Source of the DNA: Myxococcales bacterium
Lineage (GTDB): Bacteria; UBA10199; 2-02-FULL-44-16; JAAZCA01
DNA: 64,000 nucleotides
NCBI GenBank assembly: GCA_012513515.1
Contig: JAAZCA010000036.1
Coordinates: forward strand, 9,045 to 73,044
Reading direction: 5' to 3'
The notes below the pieces were generated by a model that saw nothing but the letters and a program-made list of their open reading frames with translations, made no database searches and had not been told where the DNA came from. Positions within the stretch are counted from its first letter, which is position 1; each line of letters starts with the position of its first letter. Below, piece after piece: positions 54,167-62,719 of the stretch. The position numbers and the translations under genes are program-made.

Positions 54167-55074
54167 TTGATCTTCCGGTATCTGCCGATTTTGAGATATC
54201 TGCCTATGTTTGCATCCTTCGATTTTTTTGGGATGATAGCGCCGATTGAACTCGTCATTATCGTAGCCATCCCGGGGCCGTGACCGGAAAGGTGCGAGTC
54301 GCCGTGTATCACTACCGCCACCGTTATCGCGCCGCCACGGTGGCACCATCCGAAGCTTGCATCGCAGTCCGCTATTGCAACGATGTCTCCCAGCTTCAAA
54401 TCGAGAAGATCGTTTTGCTCCAGCAAATTTTTATCGGAGGATATCAGGTCGATATCTCCGCTTTTTGAATGCGTGGATCCCATTCCGGAACCGGTCAACT
54501 TTGCGGGAACTATTTTTGCTACCTCCACCTCAAGCTTTTTGCCGAGGGATTTCGGGGACATTTTATGAAGGAGTTCAGGATCGAGTGAGGATAATGTAAT
54601 TTCCGGGAAATCCTCCAGACACAGCCCCTGTCCGAAGGTCCTGATCTGTATTTTGTCGTCGAGCGACATCTTTTCAAACACATCCTTTGGGAAATCTATG
54701 ATTACATGTTCCACTCCGCCATGGTGGCCGGTGACTACTCCTTTTTTGCCAGCCATTTTTCCGCCGATGATTACCGCCTCGTTTCCTATGCAGGTCAGGA
54801 AATTGAACGCCACGTTGGGGCGTTCCTTTCGCTTTTCCGCATTGTGAACTGTGGAGACGCACGGTTCTATATGATCGGCCGCCCAGCCAAAAGCCGGATC
54901 TCCCACTAGCACGTTGAAGGTGATGCCACCTACGCTGGGGATGTTGTGGATTTTCCCGTCGCTGCCTATCTCATTTGGATAGGCCAGCGCCGGAGCTGGC
55001 TTGCCCTCGACTGCAATTTTTACCAGGCGCTTTTCGTTCGTCTTAAGCTTCATCGGTACCCTTTCTTTTGTCAC
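54163..55074 (-). CDS. conserved hypothetical protein (possibly DUF4438 family)
   Basis: No catalytic motif recognised; glycine/histidine-rich segments 'GHHGGVEHVII', 'GHGPGMATIM'; translationally coupled between DUF362 gene and small exporter. Confidence 0.35.
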   Translation of the reverse strand: MTKERVPMKLKTNEKRLVKIAVEGKPAPALAYPNEIGSDGKIHNIPSVGGITFNVLVGDPAFGWAADHIEPCVSTVHNAEKRKERPNVAFNFLTCIGNEAVIIGGKMAGKKGVVTGHHGGVEHVIIDFPKDVFEKMSLDDKIQIRTFGQGLCLEDFPEITLSSLDPELLHKMSPKSLGKKLEVEVAKIVPAKLTGSGMGSTHSKSGDIDLISSDKNLLEQNDLLDLKLGDIVAIADCDASFGWCHRGGAITVAVVIHGDSHLSGHGPGMATIMTSSIGAIIPKKSKDANIGRYLKIGRYRKIK

Positions 55075-56138
55075 AGCTCTACGAGTTTATATTTTCTGCT
55101 CCCCAGTCCGATTTTTTTGGCGTATTCGAGTTGCAGGCTGCAATCGAGCTCGGGATGGGCTTTTTTAAAGACGTCTCCGCTGTTTTGGACTACGAGTTCA
55201 AGCGATGCCGCATCTATCGCCACAGGATCTTCCGAGGCGAGTATCCCTACGTCGGCCGCTATCGGTTTTTCCCTTATTCCAGTGCAGTCGCAATTGGGCG
55301 TGATATGGCATACGAAATTAAAATAGTATGCAGGGATATCTTTCACCGCGCCCAGCGCGTATTCCACGATGCGCTCCTGAACATTTTTTGTCTCTTCGTT
55401 CCATGTGATCGAGAGCGCTGCCGTATGACACGCGATTATGCACTCACCACATCCAGCGCACAGCTTCTTATCGAGCTCAATCTTTCCGTCGGATAGCTTC
55501 AAAGCACTTTGCGCGCACGTAGGGATGCACATGCCGCATCCGACGCACTTTTGTGATGTGACTTTCGGCGCCGCGGATGAGTGCATTTCAAATTTTCCCT
55601 TCCTGGATCCGCATCCCATGCCGATATTTTTTATGGCTCCGCCGAATCCGGTGAGTACGTGACCCTTGAAATGCGATATTACGAGCATCCTGTCGGCGTT
55701 TGTTATTCCGGTGGCGATCTTTACCTTTGAAAAGTGTTTTCCTGGTATCGGTATCTCCCGATGTTCGTCTCCCAAAAGTCCGTCGGCTATGATTACCGGA
55801 ATTTGGAGCCTGTTAAGCGAGAAGCCGTGCTCCGCAGCTACCATGAGATGTTCCACCGCATTGTTTCTGGGGCCATGATAGATCGTGCATGTATCGGTGA
55901 GAAATGGTTTTGCCTTTTTGGACTTTGCAGCCCTTATGAACGGGCGGATAAATTCCGGTTTTACATGACCGTCTCCACCGCGTTCGCCGAAATGCATCTT
56001 AATGGCCAGATATTCACCCTTTGATATCGAGGAGGGGAAGGCGGACCTCTCGATCAGGCTATCTAGTCGGTCGCGTTTCTCCCACGGAAGAAAAATAACT
56101 TCCGGTGCTTTATCGGGATTTGTTTCTGCCAAGATCAT
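55071..56138 (-). CDS. DUF362 domain protein fused to 2x[4Fe-4S] ferredoxin domain
   Basis: DUF362-like N-terminus 'LAIKMHFGERGG', internal 'CVGCGMCIPTC' and 'CAGCGECIIAC' cluster motifs. Confidence 0.7.
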   Translation of the reverse strand: MILAETNPDKAPEVIFLPWEKRDRLDSLIERSAFPSSISKGEYLAIKMHFGERGGDGHVKPEFIRPFIRAAKSKKAKPFLTDTCTIYHGPRNNAVEHLMVAAEHGFSLNRLQIPVIIADGLLGDEHREIPIPGKHFSKVKIATGITNADRMLVISHFKGHVLTGFGGAIKNIGMGCGSRKGKFEMHSSAAPKVTSQKCVGCGMCIPTCAQSALKLSDGKIELDKKLCAGCGECIIACHTAALSITWNEETKNVQERIVEYALGAVKDIPAYYFNFVCHITPNCDCTGIREKPIAADVGILASEDPVAIDAASLELVVQNSGDVFKKAHPELDCSLQLEYAKKIGLGSRKYKLVEL

Positions 56139-56365: not shown

Positions 56366-57037
56366 TTGCAGCGTCCGATAACATTGGCTATTACCTCAAT
56401 CAGCGAAGAGGAGCTGCGTATGAAATATAAGATATTGAAATACATAGGTTTTTTTGGGTTGCTGTGCGTTATTTCGCTTTTTCCGTCCAACTCCATAGCC
56501 TGCGGACATGAGGGGGTCTATCTTGGCGTCGGTTACTCCCAACTATTCATGTTCACGAACGCCATTCAAAATAATCCTTTTGGCGGTGGGGCGAAGGTTA
56601 AGTTCGGCCCCGGATACGGCGGCCATTTCATCGTTGGATACGATTTTCCGGGCTCTCGCTGGGGAATTCAGATCCCGTTTGAAATAAACAGGCTAAAGCT
56701 CAACCAGAGCGAATGGGTGAATTTCATCGACCTGTCGCTTGAGGGGGTCCTTCACATAGTGGAATGGAAAAACGGGGTCGACTTCCATCTGGTAGGAGGT
56801 GCGGGATGGTCTTACTTGACGGACGGGTCTATTGATAACAACAGCCAGGCAGGAGGCATTTCTGCGAGCTTTGGCCCTGGGCTTTCCTATTATTTTGCCC
56901 GGACTGAAAAGGTGAGCGCCTCGCTCACCCTCGAGGCGCCGTTTCGTTTCATACGCTTTTTCGGAGACAATATCTCCAGAGGCGGGGCCTCCGTCTTTGC
57001 ATTTCCAATCAGAATCGGAATGCAGGTCGGCTTCTAG
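56366..57037 (+). CDS. small outer-membrane beta-barrel protein (OmpW/OmpA-barrel-like), hypothetical
   Basis: Signal peptide; alternating amphipathic strands; C-terminal '...MQVGF' terminal Phe typical of OMPs. Confidence 0.5.
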   Translation: MQRPITLAITSISEEELRMKYKILKYIGFFGLLCVISLFPSNSIACGHEGVYLGVGYSQLFMFTNAIQNNPFGGGAKVKFGPGYGGHFIVGYDFPGSRWGIQIPFEINRLKLNQSEWVNFIDLSLEGVLHIVEWKNGVDFHLVGGAGWSYLTDGSIDNNSQAGGISASFGPGLSYYFARTEKVSASLTLEAPFRFIRFFGDNISRGGASVFAFPIRIGMQVGF

Positions 57038-57098: not shown

Positions 57099-57956
57099 AT
57101 GAAAAAACTAATATCCCTTGTCTGTTTTTTCTCCCTGATTTCATCTGTCGCATCGGCTTTCGAGACCATTGGGTTTCAAAATCCCTACGGAGTTGCGGTA
57201 GATCCTGACTCCGGAAGCATATATGTTTCAAACATCAACGGCCCCTATGATTCGCGTGATGGAAACGGGTTTATATCCAAACTGAGGGGGGATGGAACCG
57301 TCGATCAGATGAGATATCTTGGAGGCGAGTCGGGCAGCGTTACGATGAACGCCCCCAAGGGAATGGCGGTCGTAGGAGGCAAGCTCTATGCAGCGGACAT
57401 AGACAAGTTGCGCGTCTTCGATTTACGCAAGGGAACCTTTCTTTATAATATCAACTTTGGCGACTACCTCGTCCGTCATCTGGTAGGAATAATCAAGGGG
57501 CCTGACAGGGCGCTTTATGTTACGGATGGTCCGGCCAATATCATCTACAGGATCGATCCGGATAGGCAGCATGAGGTCACGCTCTTTGCATCCGGCGATT
57601 TTTTAGGTGAGCCCCATGGGATATGCTGGCATCCCGTTCGTGAGATATTTATGATCTTGGGCTGGGCCTCCGGAGAGCTTTCGCATCTGGATAAAATCGG
57701 GAAGAGACAGATTCTGCCGTCTGTTTCAGTTCCCAGAATGGAGGGATGTGCCGTCGATAGCGCTGGGAATGTTTATCTATCCAGCGAATCGTTGGGCACT
57801 ATATTCAGGCTTTCGACGGCATTATCGCTTTTTCCGTTTTCGATCAATGAAGGGAGTCCCGTCGGGATATTGTACAGGGAATCGGCAAAAGATCTCATAT
57901 CCGTATCGATGGATTCCAACAAAGTGAAGAGTTTTTTGGTGGATAACGAAAAGTAA
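57099..57956 (+). CDS. secreted NHL-repeat / SMP-30-like beta-propeller protein
   Basis: Signal peptide; repeated 'G.IYVS/LYVTD/VYLS' blocks about 45 aa apart. Confidence 0.55.
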   Translation: MKKLISLVCFFSLISSVASAFETIGFQNPYGVAVDPDSGSIYVSNINGPYDSRDGNGFISKLRGDGTVDQMRYLGGESGSVTMNAPKGMAVVGGKLYAADIDKLRVFDLRKGTFLYNINFGDYLVRHLVGIIKGPDRALYVTDGPANIIYRIDPDRQHEVTLFASGDFLGEPHGICWHPVREIFMILGWASGELSHLDKIGKRQILPSVSVPRMEGCAVDSAGNVYLSSESLGTIFRLSTALSLFPFSINEGSPVGILYRESAKDLISVSMDSNKVKSFLVDNEK

Positions 57957-57960
57957 TCGA

Positions 57961-59136
57961 TCAGAAACGCTTGTAGTCGAAGGATATGCTCTCCGCGTTG
58001 CAGAGCCTTTTTTCGATGCAGGAGTTGCACTTTACATCCGGATCTATCTTTTCCCATACAGTTGGCGTTTCCATACAGAGATACACCTTGTGCCGCGGGA
58101 GTTTGGACAGGAGTTTTTCGTACAGCGGTCTGTATGCATCTTCGCGTATGAAGCGCAGATAGCGCATCTTTCCGTTGGAAGGGACGAATTCGCCGGTGTA
58201 TATCTTTGTGTCAGGAAATCTCCTCGATGCGATACGAGAAAGGTCTTTTGGAAAACGAAGAAGCCCTAAGCTTATCCATGATATCTGCCTAGGCTCGAGT
58301 TTTTCAAATATTTTGTCGACGACGTCGAGGTATGCTTGGATCTCCGATGTCGCATCTTTTATTATTATGATGGGATCGAAGTGAAAGCCGACCCCGTAGC
58401 CCGCCGATGACACTTTTGCCGCAGCTTCTAGCCTTTCTTCAAGCGATGAGGTGTTCCTCTCTTCGGATGCGATATAAGCCGGAGTGTTTATTGACCACGA
58501 AACCACGGTCCGGTTTCTGTGACGAAGTTCCATAAGCGAATCGACGCAAAGCGACTTTGTTTTTAGCTCCAGAATTGCATTTTTTTTTGACGCGAAGAAT
58601 GGGACTAACAGACTCGCCGACTCGGTGATCGGGTCGAGCGCTAGACTATCTCCGAGTTCGCCGGTTCCGATACGGAAGAACTTTCCTTCCTCCTTGGCCA
58701 GAAACGCTGAAACCTCAGCCAATATTTCCTCGACGTTTACGTAGACGGTGGTCCGTGGATTGTTGTACAGGTACGACTGCAGTATGCAGTAGCTGCATTC
58801 CATCGGGCATCCCGAGACGAGATCCAGAACGCGATAATTGCAGCAAAGATGTCCTTCTCCTATTCCTTGGCAGAGTTTAAAAGCCTGACCTTTGTGGGCT
58901 GTAAGAACCATCTGGTTTTTGGCGCTGGCCGCGTCGGTCGGACGTTTGAGGGTTCTCACATCATCGACGATATCTACTTCGATATCCTTGAGTTTGTTCA
59001 TGATGCGTATCGTTTGTGGATGATCGGCCACGGATGCGTCGATCCAGACGTGTTCCGGCGTGAAGGGAAACGCACTAGTTTTTATTTTTCTGGAAGGCAG
59101 CCTTCTGACCTTCGAATCATGAGCAACTGTGGACAT
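57961..59136 (-). CDS. spore photoproduct lyase (SplB)-family radical SAM protein
   Basis: CxxxCxxC motif 'GCPMECSYC'; N-terminal 'FTPEHVWIDASVADHP' like SplB N-terminus; 391 aa. Confidence 0.7.
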   Translation of the reverse strand: MSTVAHDSKVRRLPSRKIKTSAFPFTPEHVWIDASVADHPQTIRIMNKLKDIEVDIVDDVRTLKRPTDAASAKNQMVLTAHKGQAFKLCQGIGEGHLCCNYRVLDLVSGCPMECSYCILQSYLYNNPRTTVYVNVEEILAEVSAFLAKEEGKFFRIGTGELGDSLALDPITESASLLVPFFASKKNAILELKTKSLCVDSLMELRHRNRTVVSWSINTPAYIASEERNTSSLEERLEAAAKVSSAGYGVGFHFDPIIIIKDATSEIQAYLDVVDKIFEKLEPRQISWISLGLLRFPKDLSRIASRRFPDTKIYTGEFVPSNGKMRYLRFIREDAYRPLYEKLLSKLPRHKVYLCMETPTVWEKIDPDVKCNSCIEKRLCNAESISFDYKRF

Positions 59137-59200
59137 GGTTGCACCCTTACATATTAAGTATAGTTCTTGTCATGAATTTTTGTGGTCCCTGACGAAAAAA

Positions 59201-60172
59201 TCAGGCGCGATACCATTCGAAAATCTGCTGCCACTTCTGTTTTTCGAACGCATCCTGAATTTTCTTGATGACCGCGTCGAGCTCTCCGGGATGTGAGAAC
59301 TGGCATTCCAGTTTCATGTTTCTGTTTTCGAAATACGGATCGGCGACGACCCTTGCCGAATCGGGGAGTTCCAGCCCCTGAATCAACTCTGCGAGCTGAC
59401 GCTGCCTCTGAGAGAGCTGCGGCAGGCGGATACCCTTGAGGGCCTTCCTGAGCGCATTGACTTTATCGGCCGAAGGTGCGGCCGGATTGGCTACGACCTG
59501 AAGCAGCTGGTAGCGATGAAGTATTTCCTCGACCGACAGCGCATCACGAGCTGAAATCTCACGCAGAAGCGAGAGCAGCTCGTTTAGCTTATTCGTAGAA
59601 GGGCGGATGTGAGTCAAAACCGCCAAAAGCGCCTGCTGCGTGGACGGGGTGAACTCAGCTATTCTGCTGGCTGAAGAAAGCGCGATATCATTGTTTACCA
59701 CATGATTCTTGAGTGGTTCGGTGAGCGCGCCCAGAGAGAGCAACTGATGGAGTATCTTGAAACTCTGTTCTTCACCCAACAAGGGCAGGAACTGTTTCGT
59801 GAGATCTTCATCGGACATCGAATAGAACTGTTTCAGCTTTGTGAGTGCGATGCTCTTTTCGACCAGATTCAATCGGCGCGATATCGCGTTGTCGTGCAGA
59901 TTCCACAGAAATGCCTGCGTCGGCGACAGGTCGTTGTGCTCATAGAGCATCGCCGGGATAGATTGCCTCTCCAGCTCCTGCATAGCCAAAACGCGTTTGT
60001 AGCCGGTGACTATCTGGTATGTTCCCTCCGGAGTATGCCGCACAGTGATCGGCTGGATGATTCCTACCTGCTTGATCGAACGTTTCAACTCCTCGATCTT
60101 AGGGGAAAAGGTTATGCGGTAGCTGTCATCCGCAATGTTTAGACTGGAAACGTTTATGTATTGGAGTAACAT
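59201..60172 (-). CDS. ParB/Srx N-terminal domain protein (ParB-like nuclease/CTPase fold) with helical C-terminal region
   Basis: 'PITVRHTPEGTYQIVTGYKRVLAMQEL' matches ParB box (GxxRxxA-type arginine patch, one Arg replaced by Lys); immediately upstream of SPL-like gene on same strand. Confidence 0.6.
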   Translation of the reverse strand: MLLQYINVSSLNIADDSYRITFSPKIEELKRSIKQVGIIQPITVRHTPEGTYQIVTGYKRVLAMQELERQSIPAMLYEHNDLSPTQAFLWNLHDNAISRRLNLVEKSIALTKLKQFYSMSDEDLTKQFLPLLGEEQSFKILHQLLSLGALTEPLKNHVVNNDIALSSASRIAEFTPSTQQALLAVLTHIRPSTNKLNELLSLLREISARDALSVEEILHRYQLLQVVANPAAPSADKVNALRKALKGIRLPQLSQRQRQLAELIQGLELPDSARVVADPYFENRNMKLECQFSHPGELDAVIKKIQDAFEKQKWQQIFEWYRA

Positions 60173-60246
60173 GGCGGCGGATAATGGAGAAGTCCTTCCA
60201 GAATTGCAATATTAATCTTTATCCGAATCTGATTTTTTGAAAAATT

Positions 60247-60735
60247 TTGGAGGCCTCTTTGATGAAGGAAAAAAATCTCGAAGAAACTTTTATGAAAGCC
60301 GCTGTGGCACAGGCGGTGCGGGCGGGAGAATTAGACGAGGTACCAATTGGAGCGGTTGCGGTTTTGGGCAACAAAATAATAGCCAGGGCGCACAACCTTC
60401 GTGAAAAAAAACAGGATCCGCTAGGTCACGCCGAAATTTTGCTGATCGAAAAGGCGGCGAAAAAAATGAAAAGCTGGAGGCTGGATGGCGTCACCATATA
60501 TGTTACATGCGAGCCTTGTGTGATGTGTGCGGGAGCTATTTTGCAGTCGAGGGTGAAGAGGGTTGTATTTGGCTGTTTCGATCCGAAGGCGGGAGCGGTA
60601 GGTTCCCTCTTCAACCTGTCGAACGATAGAAGGCTAAATCACAGATTCGAGGTGAAAAGCGGGGTTATGGGAAAACAGTGTGCAGCTCTCCTCTCCGAAT
60701 TTTTCAGGCGGAAGCGGAAGAAAAAATGCAAATAA
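60247..60735 (+). CDS. tadA: tRNA-specific adenosine-34 deaminase
   Basis: 'HAEILLIEKAA' and 'CEPCVMCAGAI' CDA zinc motifs. Confidence 0.85.
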   Translation: MEASLMKEKNLEETFMKAAVAQAVRAGELDEVPIGAVAVLGNKIIARAHNLREKKQDPLGHAEILLIEKAAKKMKSWRLDGVTIYVTCEPCVMCAGAILQSRVKRVVFGCFDPKAGAVGSLFNLSNDRRLNHRFEVKSGVMGKQCAALLSEFFRRKRKKKCK

Positions 60736-60786
60736 CATCTCCTCTCCTCACAAAAAACCCGCGCTTTCGCACGGGTTTTTTTGTTG

Positions 60787-60873
60787 CGGAGAGGGAGGGA
60801 TTCGAACCCTCGGTACCCAGAAGGGTACAACGGTTTTCGAGACCGCCCCGTTCGACCGCTCCGGCACCTCTCC
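60787..60873 (-). tRNA. tRNA-Ser (anticodon CGA)
   Basis: Reverse complement GGAGAGG...CCTCTCCG with 3-bp D stem, anticodon loop CUCGAAA, long variable arm, T arm GAGGG-TTCGAAT-CCCTC. Confidence 0.9.
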
Positions 60874-62631: not shown

Positions 62632-62719
62632 TGGCGGAGAGAGTGGGATTCGAACCCACGTTACCGTTAAGTAAACACGCTTTCCAAGCGTGCGCCTTCA
62701 GCCTCTCGGCCATCTCTCC
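62632..62719 (-). tRNA. tRNA-Ser (anticodon GGA), CCA encoded
   Basis: Reverse complement GGAGAGATGGCCGAGAGG...CACGC-UUGGAAA-GCGUG...GGGTTCGAATCCCAC TCTCTCC GCCA, long variable arm. Confidence 0.9.

Follow-up and report, generated by a model that had tools for sequence, protein, structure and literature searches.

The question raised by this locus is why a gene for a ParB-like protein lies beside a gene for a radical SAM enzyme of the spore photoproduct lyase (SPL) family, and whether the two products act together on DNA. The hosts of the gene pair are uncultured deltaproteobacteria-like bacteria of a non-sporulating lineage. The window, i.e. the whole 64-kb stretch of DNA that was analysed, has the following arrangement at the pair:

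59201..60172, minus strand: orphan ParB-like gene, 323 aa, with a ParB/Srx N-domain, a ParB/KorB-type HTH and a novel C-terminal domain
57961..59136, minus strand: SPL-family radical SAM gene, 391 aa
59137..59200, minus strand: intergenic spacer, 64 bp, with an SD-like AAGGGTG ahead of the second ATG
60181..60209, minus strand: promoter-like element, -35 TTGCAA at 60204-60209, 17 nt, -10 CATTAT at 60181-60186
60170-60172, minus strand: ATG of the ParB-like gene, separated from the -10 by 8 nt, CCGCCGCC

The reading that we favour, with about as much confidence as doubt, is that the pair constitutes a chromosomal two-protein, DNA-directed radical SAM unit, made up of an SP-lyase-fold enzyme and an orphan ParB-fold partner.

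The operon-like layout proposed in the preliminary description was borne out: the genes share a strand and are 64 bp apart, an SD precedes the second gene, and a scan of the minus strand of the spacer predicted no terminator-like site. In the relatives the spacer is mostly 7-125 bp long. The ParB-like gene of the window has no Shine-Dalgarno sequence upstream of its ATG, so that its mRNA is probably leaderless or nearly so; only 3 of 26 distinct loci have an SD before this gene. The element upstream of it is promoter-like and is backed by phylogenetic conservation, the identical arrangement being present in 16 of the 26 distinct loci. It is absent from the list of the promoter scanner because merely 8 of 12 positions match the consensus.

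The comparison of loci by computation shows that the adjacency of the ParB-like and SPL-like genes is strongly conserved. The radical SAM gene lies directly downstream of the ParB-like gene in 20 of the 23 informative distinct loci, and in one further locus the pair has been relocated and is still adjacent, i.e. the pairing pointed out in the preliminary description holds well beyond the window. The adjacency is maintained while all other neighbours are extensively reshuffled. Look-ups that started from the enzyme (n=6) found a full-length superfamily partner in four cases (the divergent lineages L010, L011 and L012, and L038), a stand-alone C-terminal domain in one (L045) and no partner within 4 kb of the enzyme gene in the last (L044), on account of which the proposition that the enzyme always has a partner was rejected. 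At two loci of the core family (L018 and L030) the partner is intact and no radical SAM gene lies within 4 kb, and in two others (L038 and L039) a well-conserved partner adjoins a radical SAM gene that lacks CxxxCxxC. Divergence of the one protein tracks that of the other (Spearman 0.73, n=19), a correlation that shared phylogeny alone would also give. The partner was more conserved than the enzyme in all 19 loci compared and more conserved than the essential TadA protein in 19 of 23, which suggests that it has a role of its own.

The third domain of the ParB-like protein is the one that could not be matched to a described family:

59204..59614, minus strand: novel C-terminal domain, aa 187-323, about 135 aa
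59327-59368, minus strand: invariant L269-P...P279-x-F-E282 of the C-terminal domain

It gave no significant match in Pfam or PDB, and no relation to the ParB dimerisation domain was found in Pfam. Its LP...P[YF]FE signature does not vary even among partners that share 25-28% identity, and it is kept in the L010 partner, from which box II of the N-domain is deleted. The domain that stands alone in L045, without an HTH, is 50 bp from the SPL-like gene, and we infer from this that the C-terminal domain is probably the module that couples the ParB-like protein to the enzyme. The preliminary description had named the ParB N-domain; what this locus keeps beside the enzyme is the novel C-terminal domain.

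A profile search placed the partner in a superfamily of proteins that bear this C-terminal domain, comprising 1,802 representative clusters, most of them with the same architecture. The members are often without a radical SAM neighbour. A profile search for remote partners gave at least 14 matches. Four distinct remote members (L036 included) have no SPL-like gene nearby, and there are remote members that adjoin HU or a glycosyltransferase. The large superfamily, the partners that are intact beside a motif-less or non-adjacent radical SAM gene and the higher conservation of the partner together indicate that the ParB-like protein is more than an accessory to the enzyme, and this part of the preliminary description needs revision.

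The same observations speak for a different explanation, namely that the two genes lie side by side without any mechanistic link. On this view the product of the first gene would be of the KorB, VirB or Noc type, either a transcription factor or a nucleoid-associated protein, with a cellular role of its own, and would at most regulate an operon that happens to contain the SPL-like gene. SplA regulates splB in Bacillus subtilis, and the present case would then resemble that one; the gene upstream of the enzyme is here ParB-like and not splA. The preserved HTH and the conserved promoter fit this explanation as well. However, the adjacency has outlasted the reshuffling of everything around it, the loss of the HTH in L045 would be unexpected for a DNA-binding regulator, and the L010 partner has been kept despite its box II deletion. 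We consider independence of the two genes rather unlikely on these grounds.

The favoured reading of a DNA-directed unit further depends on what kind of enzyme the second gene encodes, for which the following features are relevant:

58786..58809, minus strand: CPMECSYC [4Fe-4S] motif, residues 110-117 (C110, C114, C117)
58783-58785, minus strand: I118, in place of SPL Tyr98
58870..58872, minus strand: invariant C89, aligned with SPL position 76, where the 4rh0 chain has Cys
58840..58845, minus strand: invariant C98-C99, within a 6-7-residue insertion missing from SP lyase
58159..58188, minus strand: beta-hairpin predicted from the structure model, aa 317-326, strands E317-320 and E323-326

The 391-aa enzyme is a true SPL-fold protein with the SPL lesion-binding residues and was not assigned by homology to a radical SAM family with non-DNA substrates, and its earlier placement in the SplB family agrees with the Pfam matches (SPL 2.3e-38, Radical_SAM 1.8e-08). 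It is about 24-27% identical to SplB (G. thermodenitrificans 4FHC; Bacillus and Clostridium SPL), with which it shares the cluster cysteines, Tyr96 (here Y116), the Clostridium-type cysteine and, by alignment, the SAM-binding residues Lys174 (K194) and Arg273 (R294), Thr standing at the position of the third such residue, Ser195. Apart from this Thr, these counterparts are invariant or nearly so in the family. The invariant R325-Y326 at the hairpin end corresponds in the profile alignment to the SPL hairpin-tip residues Arg304-Tyr305, which serve base flipping (PMC3467042). On the other hand, Tyr98, which is strictly conserved in true SPLs (PMC3467042), is replaced by Ile or Val throughout the family, the window protein having Ile118; the Cys140 position is taken by Glu160, within a GTGE motif; and the Cys-Cys insertion and the conserved C354 are additional to SPL. 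The host is non-sporulating and uncultured. Among the matches listed, CxxxCxxC occurs in 118 of 120 homologues and C89 is invariant in 120 sequences. Clostridium SPLs have an upstream Cys77 as an alternative H-atom donor (PMC3467042), and C89 aligns as such a Clostridium-type fourth cysteine near the lesion. The idea that loss of Cys140 amounts to loss of the SPL H-donor was rejected, since the upstream Cys of Clostridium SPL aligns with the invariant C89.

One might take the enzyme for a genuine SP lyase which, in non-sporulators, repairs 5-thyminyl-5,6-dihydrothymine in dehydrated or dormant cells and has no need of the ParB-like protein. However, it scores 147.3 bits against TIGR04070, where the equivalog cut-off is 400, and 53.5 bits against the related model TIGR03886 (cut-off 437.55); the lost Tyr98 together with the TIGR04070 score suggests that its chemistry may differ from that of SPL. 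The invariant Cys-Cys insertion and C354 also speak against a genuine SP lyase, as does the conservation of the partner together with the enzyme, and several carriers come from groundwater assemblies, where UV exposure is presumably unlikely. We regard this explanation as improbable.

A further neighbour of the pair is conspicuous:

60247..60735, plus strand: tadA (tRNA adenosine-34 deaminase), divergent; NF008113 165 bits (cut-off 150)

Of the 23 informative loci, 21 have the divergent tadA; it is missing beside the pair in L011 and L012. There are tRNA-Ser genes near the locus. In L020 the radical SAM gene overlaps the 3' end of tadA, the two forming one operon. These observations could mean that the target of the pair is RNA or some other substrate that is not DNA, e.g. 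in a tRNA-directed radical reaction linked to tadA. Such a role appears quite improbable, since TadA is a standard housekeeping equivalog, the pair is retained without tadA in L010, L011 and L012, the HTH of the partner is of the dsDNA-binding ParB/KorB type, and the enzyme retains the duplex-DNA hairpin and the phosphate-binding Arg of SPL. Because the pair persists without it, tadA is judged to be lineage synteny, i.e. probably a syntenic neighbour outside the functional unit, and it was rejected as a component of the system, with some doubt left by L020. The MBL-fold and SDR genes that follow the genes of divergent enzymes have generic annotations only.

The part of the ParB-like protein that precedes the C-terminal domain can be divided as follows:

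59873..60172, minus strand: ParB/Srx nucleotide-pocket domain, aa 1-100, from alignments to Noc 7ol9 and Caulobacter ParB 6t1f and from family conservation
60116-60130, minus strand: D15-D-S-Y-R19, in place of the QPR box
59984-60004, minus strand: box II G57-Y-K-R-V-L-A63, in place of GERRxRA
59888-59896, minus strand: box III H93-D-N95
59615..59872, minus strand: HTH DNA-binding region, aa ~101-186

The ParB/Srx assignment was confirmed by Pfam ParB_N (2e-15, 57 bits, cut-off 26.3) and TIGR00180 (62.2 bits, cut-off 58.45). Box II indeed follows the GxxRxxA pattern with the first Arg changed to Lys, as first described, but two further replacements had been missed, those of the GERR Glu by Tyr and of the last Arg by Leu. 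In ParB the QPR Gln and the GERRxRA box contact the CTP phosphates and Mg, and the Gln and Glu of the QPR and GERR boxes have catalytic roles in CTP hydrolysis. Both are replaced family-wide, Gln by Ser and Glu by Tyr or another aromatic residue. Among the matches listed the G[YF][KR]R motif is found in 118 of 120 homologues, the remaining two being 260-aa fragments; as the same count holds for CxxxCxxC in the enzyme, we consider both motifs family signatures and not the product of chance. In the superfamily the pattern of box II is G[FYWH][RK]R. The proposal of a CTPase clamp or loader is supported in part only: the ParB fold is there, but the hydrolytic residues are replaced, and the nucleotide specificity of ParB-CTPase-fold proteins cannot be predicted from sequence (PMC12704722).

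The protein carries the public annotation 'ParB/RepB/Spo0J family partition protein', its TIGR00180 score is barely over the cut-off, and its best PDB sequence matches are Noc and ParB. That it is the chromosome-partition ParB or Noc of the organism, placed beside the radical SAM gene incidentally, is nevertheless scarcely credible, given that neither a deviant Walker A ParA nor an LG[RK]GL ParA-binding peptide was found within the 64-kb window and no parA beside the gene in any locus examined, that canonical parS (TGTTNCACGTGAAACA) has no match in the window at up to 3 mismatches, that box II reads GYKR for GERR, that the Noc model gives 65.3 bits (cut-off 315), and that the C-terminal domain has no relative in Pfam and the adjacency to the radical SAM gene is conserved. 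We conclude that it is an orphan ParB and neither a partition ParB nor Noc. No palindromic binding site near the locus was shared across 19 loci, apart from the tRNA-Ser(GGA) anticodon stem, the sole palindrome common to several of them.

The context of the pair is chromosomal and non-mobile. A phage or plasmid origin was rejected: there are no relatives in IMG/VR and no full-length ones in PLSDB or INPHARED, and BFVD gave weak matches only, the best viral structural match to the enzyme having a TMq of 0.54. A defence system was likewise rejected, as the one PADLOC match, of MTase_II with the ParB domain, was weak and not meaningful.

If the pair is a DNA-directed unit, its mode of action might be pictured as follows. 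The [4Fe-4S] cluster of the enzyme would reductively cleave SAM. The Arg-Tyr hairpin would flip a pyrimidine (di)nucleotide out of the DNA duplex, and the 5'-deoxyadenosyl radical would take a hydrogen from it. The hydrogen atom would be given back by the Clostridium-type cysteine C89, and the C98-C99 pair may assume the relay role of the absent Tyr98. The ParB-like protein would be held on DNA via its HTH, its remodelled pocket (G-Y-K-R, D-D-S-Y-R) presumably binding an NTP, with ParB-like hydrolysis unlikely. Physical coupling would be provided by the C-terminal domain, which would contact or activate the enzyme so that it acts on double-stranded DNA. Probably the substrate derives from thymine, either as a lesion or as a modification, and is a relative of the spore photoproduct but not that compound itself; the outcome could be either repair or modification.

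No paper describing a pairing of a ParB-like with an SPL-like protein was found in the literature, so the view that the system is 'not described as such' holds for the pair itself, but not for the general principle, as a 2026 paper reported DNA thymine dioxygenases that have ParB-like activators (PMC13229309). These ParB-dependent phage enzymes are the nearest precedent. For dsDNA specifically, the phage enzyme 5mYOX176 depends on its cognate ParB-like activator, and mutation of the NTP site does not abolish function (PMC13229309). In both cases a ParB-fold gene adjoins the gene for an enzyme that acts, or here would act, on a thymine C5 substituent in DNA, and the canonical NTP-hydrolysis residues are dispensable in the phage system and absent here. 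In that system the NBD and the C-terminal domain are both important, and the pairs are cognate-specific (PMC13229309). The differences are also clear. 5mYOX176 is a phage-encoded Fe(II)/2OG dioxygenase, whereas the present enzyme is a chromosomal radical SAM protein of the SPL fold; the phage ParBs have no DNA-binding domain, whereas the partner here has an HTH and a different, unmatched C-terminal domain; and the dependence on the partner was shown experimentally for 5mYOX176/ParB176, whereas here we infer it.

The partner also differs from other orphan ParB-fold proteins. Noc, KorB, VirB and PadC have a GERR box II in contrast to the G-[F/Y/W/H]-[R/K]-R found here, and the C-terminal domain of the partner has no known relative. 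The survey of orphan ParB-CTPase-fold proteins (PMC12704722) makes no mention of an association with radical SAM proteins, and the orphans are tied to mobile elements, whereas the partner is chromosomal and vertically inherited. On the side of the enzyme, gp53 of phage M6 is an SPL-fold radical SAM isomerase that takes part in thymidine hypermodification in DNA (PMC8989533). Its action on a thymidine derivative in DNA means that the fold serves modification besides repair. However, gp53 shares only about 13% identity with SPL and works as part of a kinase/transferase/PLP gene cluster on phage DNA with 5-hmdU, and none of these partner genes occurs at the present locus.

Apart from SP lyase and a single phage isomerase, essentially no radical SAM enzyme is known to act on DNA. 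An SPL-fold enzyme conserved on the chromosomes of bacteria that do not sporulate and probably live without light would therefore point to new lesion-repair chemistry or to a new DNA modification, and the pair as a whole points to a helper-assisted radical enzyme acting on DNA that has so far not been described. The repurposing of ParB folds as activators of DNA-base enzymes is a theme of 2025-2026 only, and the pair, with its obligate-looking ParB-fold neighbour, would take it beyond phages, to bacterial chromosomes, and beyond dioxygenases, to radical SAM enzymes. A large ParB-like superfamily also comes to light, the C-terminal domain of which has no Pfam model and the members of which are publicly labelled 'partition protein'. 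We note that the pair lends itself to testing: both proteins are small and soluble, a reference structure is known and the assays are clear.

Tentatively, and with more doubt than conviction, we suggest that the C-terminal domain represents a new class of 'licensing' module which, alone or as a fusion with an orphan ParB NTP-switch and HTH, enables SPL-fold radical SAM enzymes to act on duplex chromosomal DNA. If this were true, bacteria of dark, anoxic habitats may use the pair to mend a thymine cross-link or radical lesion of non-UV origin or, alternatively, in installing or removing a thymine-based, epigenetic-like mark. The G-aromatic-[R/K]-R superfamily of about 1,800 clusters would then constitute new, widespread chromosomal ParB-fold switches with client enzymes.

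The pair consists of two minus-strand genes whose 64-bp spacer contains no predicted minus-strand terminator-like site; an SD-like AAGGGTG lies ahead of the enzyme start codon.

59201..60172, minus strand, ORF of the ParB-like partner, 323 aa
57961..59136, minus strand, ORF of the SPL-like radical SAM enzyme, 391 aa

The preliminary description of the two proteins was accurate: the partner matches Pfam ParB_N at 2e-15, and the enzyme matches Pfam SPL (2.3e-38) and Radical_SAM, with CPMECSYC at residues 110-117. The partner scores slightly over the cut-off of the generic ParB/RepB/Spo0J model TIGR00180 and reaches 65 bits against the Noc equivalog (cut-off 315), while the enzyme reaches 147 bits against the SP-lyase equivalog (cut-off 400).

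The neighbourhood is made up of housekeeping genes, i.e. tadA, YchF and tRNA-Ser. The tRNA-Ser genes (CGA, GGA) at 60786-60873 (-) and 62632-62719 (-) flank the tadA-ychF region; a 17-bp palindrome common to four loci was rejected as a protein-binding site, as it is the anticodon stem of tRNA-Ser(GGA), 62676-62692. On the other side lie three further genes:

55071-56138, minus strand, DUF362-type protein with two [4Fe-4S] ferredoxin motifs
56366-57037, plus strand, beta-barrel OMP-like protein
57099-57956, plus strand, NHL/SGL-repeat protein

Neighbours of these types near the pair also occur in the relative loci L006, L018, L030 and L038. Hypothetically, the ferredoxin-domain protein could in principle serve as an electron source for the radical SAM enzyme.

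Upstream of the ParB-like gene there is a phylogenetically conserved promoter-like element (60170-60209 (-); TTGCA(A/T), 16-17 nt, (C/T)A(T/A)TAT), separated from the ATG by merely 8-11 GC-rich nt. This layout was seen in 16 of 26 loci (besides the window, L001, L003, L004, L006, L009, L013, L015-L020, L031, L032 and L038), and a Shine-Dalgarno sequence in only 3 of 26. The short distance and the rarity of Shine-Dalgarno sequences suggest that the mRNA is leaderless or near-leaderless, with a GC-rich discriminator.

Conservation of the pairing was investigated in 27 distinct loci, gathered from the ParB-like protein in GTDB genomes, public assemblies and JGI metagenomes and de-duplicated at 97%; 23 had enough downstream sequence for the adjacency count. 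The SPL-like gene lies directly downstream of the ParB-like gene in 20 of the 23, mostly with gaps of 7-125 bp. In L020 it has been displaced to the far side of the adjacent tadA, whose 3' end it overlaps; the three genes are still together, the rSAM gene forming an operon with tadA that runs divergently to the ParB-like gene (L020:33-1642 (-)). In L018 and L030 the ParB-like gene is intact and there is no rSAM gene within 4 kb. In 21 of the 23 loci the pair lies beside a divergent tadA, which is a bona fide equivalog, and all remaining neighbours vary.

Six look-ups were begun from the enzyme. Full-length partners were found for L011 (323 aa, 13-bp gap, no tadA), L012 (322 aa, GFRR, no tadA), L038/L039 and L010; the L010 partner (304 aa) is divergently oriented and has box II, the GERR/GYKR region, deleted. 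The L044 enzyme has no partner within 4 kb. In L045 a stand-alone C-terminal domain diverges from the enzyme, 50 bp from its start:

L045:3546-3950, minus strand, stand-alone C-terminal domain, 134 aa, 79.6 bits to the remote profile, without ParB N-domain and HTH
L045:4001-5086, SPL-like gene

In the divergent subgroup of enzymes, the gene or genes next after the SPL-like one encode a metallo-beta-lactamase-fold protein of 305 aa, a short-chain dehydrogenase, or both (L010:7194-8979, L045:5076-5993, L012:7222-8028; generic NCBIfam matches only); in L045 the metallo-beta-lactamase-fold gene overlaps the SPL-like gene by 11 nt.

Every carrier is an uncultured MAG, with Deltaproteobacteria, Myxococcales, Pseudomonadota or 'bacterium' as its label, several of them from groundwater. 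No relatives were found in IMG/VR, INPHARED or PLSDB, and PADLOC gave no meaningful match.

The C-terminal domain also occurs far beyond the core family. A profile of this domain alone, searched against 1.84 billion representatives, matched 1,802 clusters at E<=1e-3, of which 221 reached E<=1e-10, the core family being three representatives among them. Nearly all full-length matches have 311-351 aa, the domain at about 185-320 and the three-part architecture of the partner. The full-length core profile likewise matched the 97 full-length representatives checked; among the 25 matches listed, the core family's own representative scores 514 bits and the others 176 to 235. Box II of the superfamily reads G-[F/Y/W/H]-[R/K]-R (GFRR in 34 of the 97). 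Among the best 150 domain matches 41 are shorter than 215 aa, and since 39 of these start with Met, stand-alone C-terminal-domain proteins seem to be common.

No SPL-like gene lies near four distinct remote members (L036/37, L040/41, L042, L043), three of which are downstream of an HU gene. The members in L040 (4567-5957), L041 and L042 (4601-5936), 311-318 aa without Pfam match, are directly downstream of this gene (Bac_DNA_binding) and convergent with ribD-nrdR, a location that hints at a nucleoid-related role of the wider family. In the core family, all 19 loci compared show higher conservation for the partner than for the enzyme (mean identity 66% against 54%); compared with TadA, an essential protein, the partner is the better conserved one in 19 of 23. 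Two independent assemblies, L038 and L039, carry an enzyme (P0057; 5001-6176 in both, motif region GSPIAASFGAEAL) without CxxxCxxC, next to a partner still 72% identical. P0057 retains C89, C354 and the Cys-Cys pair, and the tadA/ParB-like/rSAM triad is otherwise intact; the gene may be decaying or encode a pseudo-enzyme. The relation is therefore asymmetric: the SPL-like clade is nearly always accompanied by a superfamily member, whereas the partner also exists independently of the enzyme. The size of the superfamily, its members without an SPL-like gene and the higher conservation of the partner support the alternative of an independent nucleoid protein or regulator whose adjacency reflects co-regulation only; the robust adjacency and the stand-alone domain of L045 weaken this explanation, which we regard as possible but rather unlikely.

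The enzyme family profile aligned with SP lyase at E=1.5e-45, and its positions were interpreted against the SPL structure (PMC3467042). The three cluster cysteines, Tyr96 and the SAM-binding Lys174 (K194) and Arg273 (R294, invariant) are kept, and Arg304-Tyr305 at the tip of the base-flipping hairpin correspond to the invariant R325-Y326, within a hairpin predicted at residues 317-326. Cys140 is replaced by Glu160, part of a GTGE motif that is invariant. This Cys is missing from clostridial SPLs too, which use one further upstream instead, at the position of Ser76 in the Geobacillus enzyme (PMC3467042); the invariant C89 aligns exactly with position 76 (alignment to a chain carrying Cys76), so the idea that the H-atom donor is lost was rejected. 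On the other hand, Ile or Val takes the place of Tyr98, which true SPLs strictly conserve; an insertion of 6-7 residues absent from SPL contains the invariant C98-C99, and C354 is near-invariant. Judged from these residues, the enzyme is a member of the SPL fold family that has kept the DNA-lesion-handling apparatus, yet it is no orthologue of SPL. Classical SP repair is made less likely by the absence of Tyr98, the additional Cys-Cys pair and habitats that are probably free of UV, and a plain SP lyase with no need of the partner is improbable.

The N-terminus of the core-clade enzymes is a basic tail (pI 11.7, 6 K/R in 24 aa; 59065-59136 (-), aa 1-24), predicted to be disordered (pLDDT about 50) and absent from the shorter enzymes (340-365 aa) of more distant relatives; hypothetically, this tail could be a contact site for DNA or for the partner.

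An RNA or tRNA substrate tied to tadA is supported by L020, with its rSAM gene overlapping tadA, while L010-L012 and the dsDNA-type features of the pair speak against it; we consider it very doubtful.

The AF2 model of the partner (pLDDT 87.3) has three parts. By sequence, it can be aligned to Noc and Caulobacter ParB up to about residue 183; the C-terminal third gave no convincing structural match with the model, and no significant match to Pfam or PDB sequences even by profile. Across 119 homologues the QPR box is D15-D-S-Y-R19 and GERR is G57-Y-K-R60. The reported replacement of one Arg by Lys is thus real but understates the change in box II, from GERRxRA to GYKRVLA. ParB depends on the replaced Gln and Glu to coordinate Mg2+ and to hydrolyse CTP, hence we expect nucleotide binding without ParB-like hydrolysis, and the suggested role of a CTPase loader is not supported. 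A survey of the fold warns that nucleotide specificity is not predictable from sequence or AlphaFold3 (PMC12704722). The partner fits the 'orphan ParB' of that survey: it begins directly at the ParB fold, it has no LG[RK]GL ParA-binding peptide, and no ParA, second ParB or parS-like site was found in the 64-kb window. That it is a partition ParB or Noc is scarcely credible.

The reading with the most support is that of a radical SAM enzyme directed at DNA with the help of an orphan ParB-fold protein; the preliminary interpretation is partly supported, its CTPase-loader detail excepted. From fold, residue conservation and synteny we infer the further steps. The substrate, which may be repaired or modified, would be a flipped-out pyrimidine (di)nucleotide in duplex DNA, because the lesion-binding residues of SPL are conserved, and the partner, having an HTH, would sit on DNA. 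The coupling module would be its C-terminal domain, not the NTP pocket, given that LP...P[YF]FE is invariant at 25-28% identity, that L010 has lost box II and that L045 keeps this domain only.

In the closest precedent, an experimental one, the phage thymine dioxygenase 5mYOX176 depends on a cognate ParB-like protein, and does so specifically on dsDNA; the NBD is needed as well as the C-terminal domain, and mutations of NTP-site residues are tolerated (PMC13229309). A second precedent is phage M6 gp53, by which SPL-fold enzymes can modify, not repair, thymidine in DNA (PMC8989533). Full-text literature searches retrieved no paper that connects a ParB-like protein with a radical SAM enzyme, whether SPL-type or other; radical SAM and SPL go unmentioned in the 2025 survey of the ParB-CTPase fold (PMC12704722), and public databases annotate the two proteins generically, as 'partition protein' and 'radical SAM protein'. 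The pairing is real and conserved, and it is undescribed. Each of the two folds is known by itself, and phages now provide a precedent for a ParB-like protein that activates a DNA-base enzyme. The emphasis should be on the novel C-terminal domain and the large superfamily that it defines.
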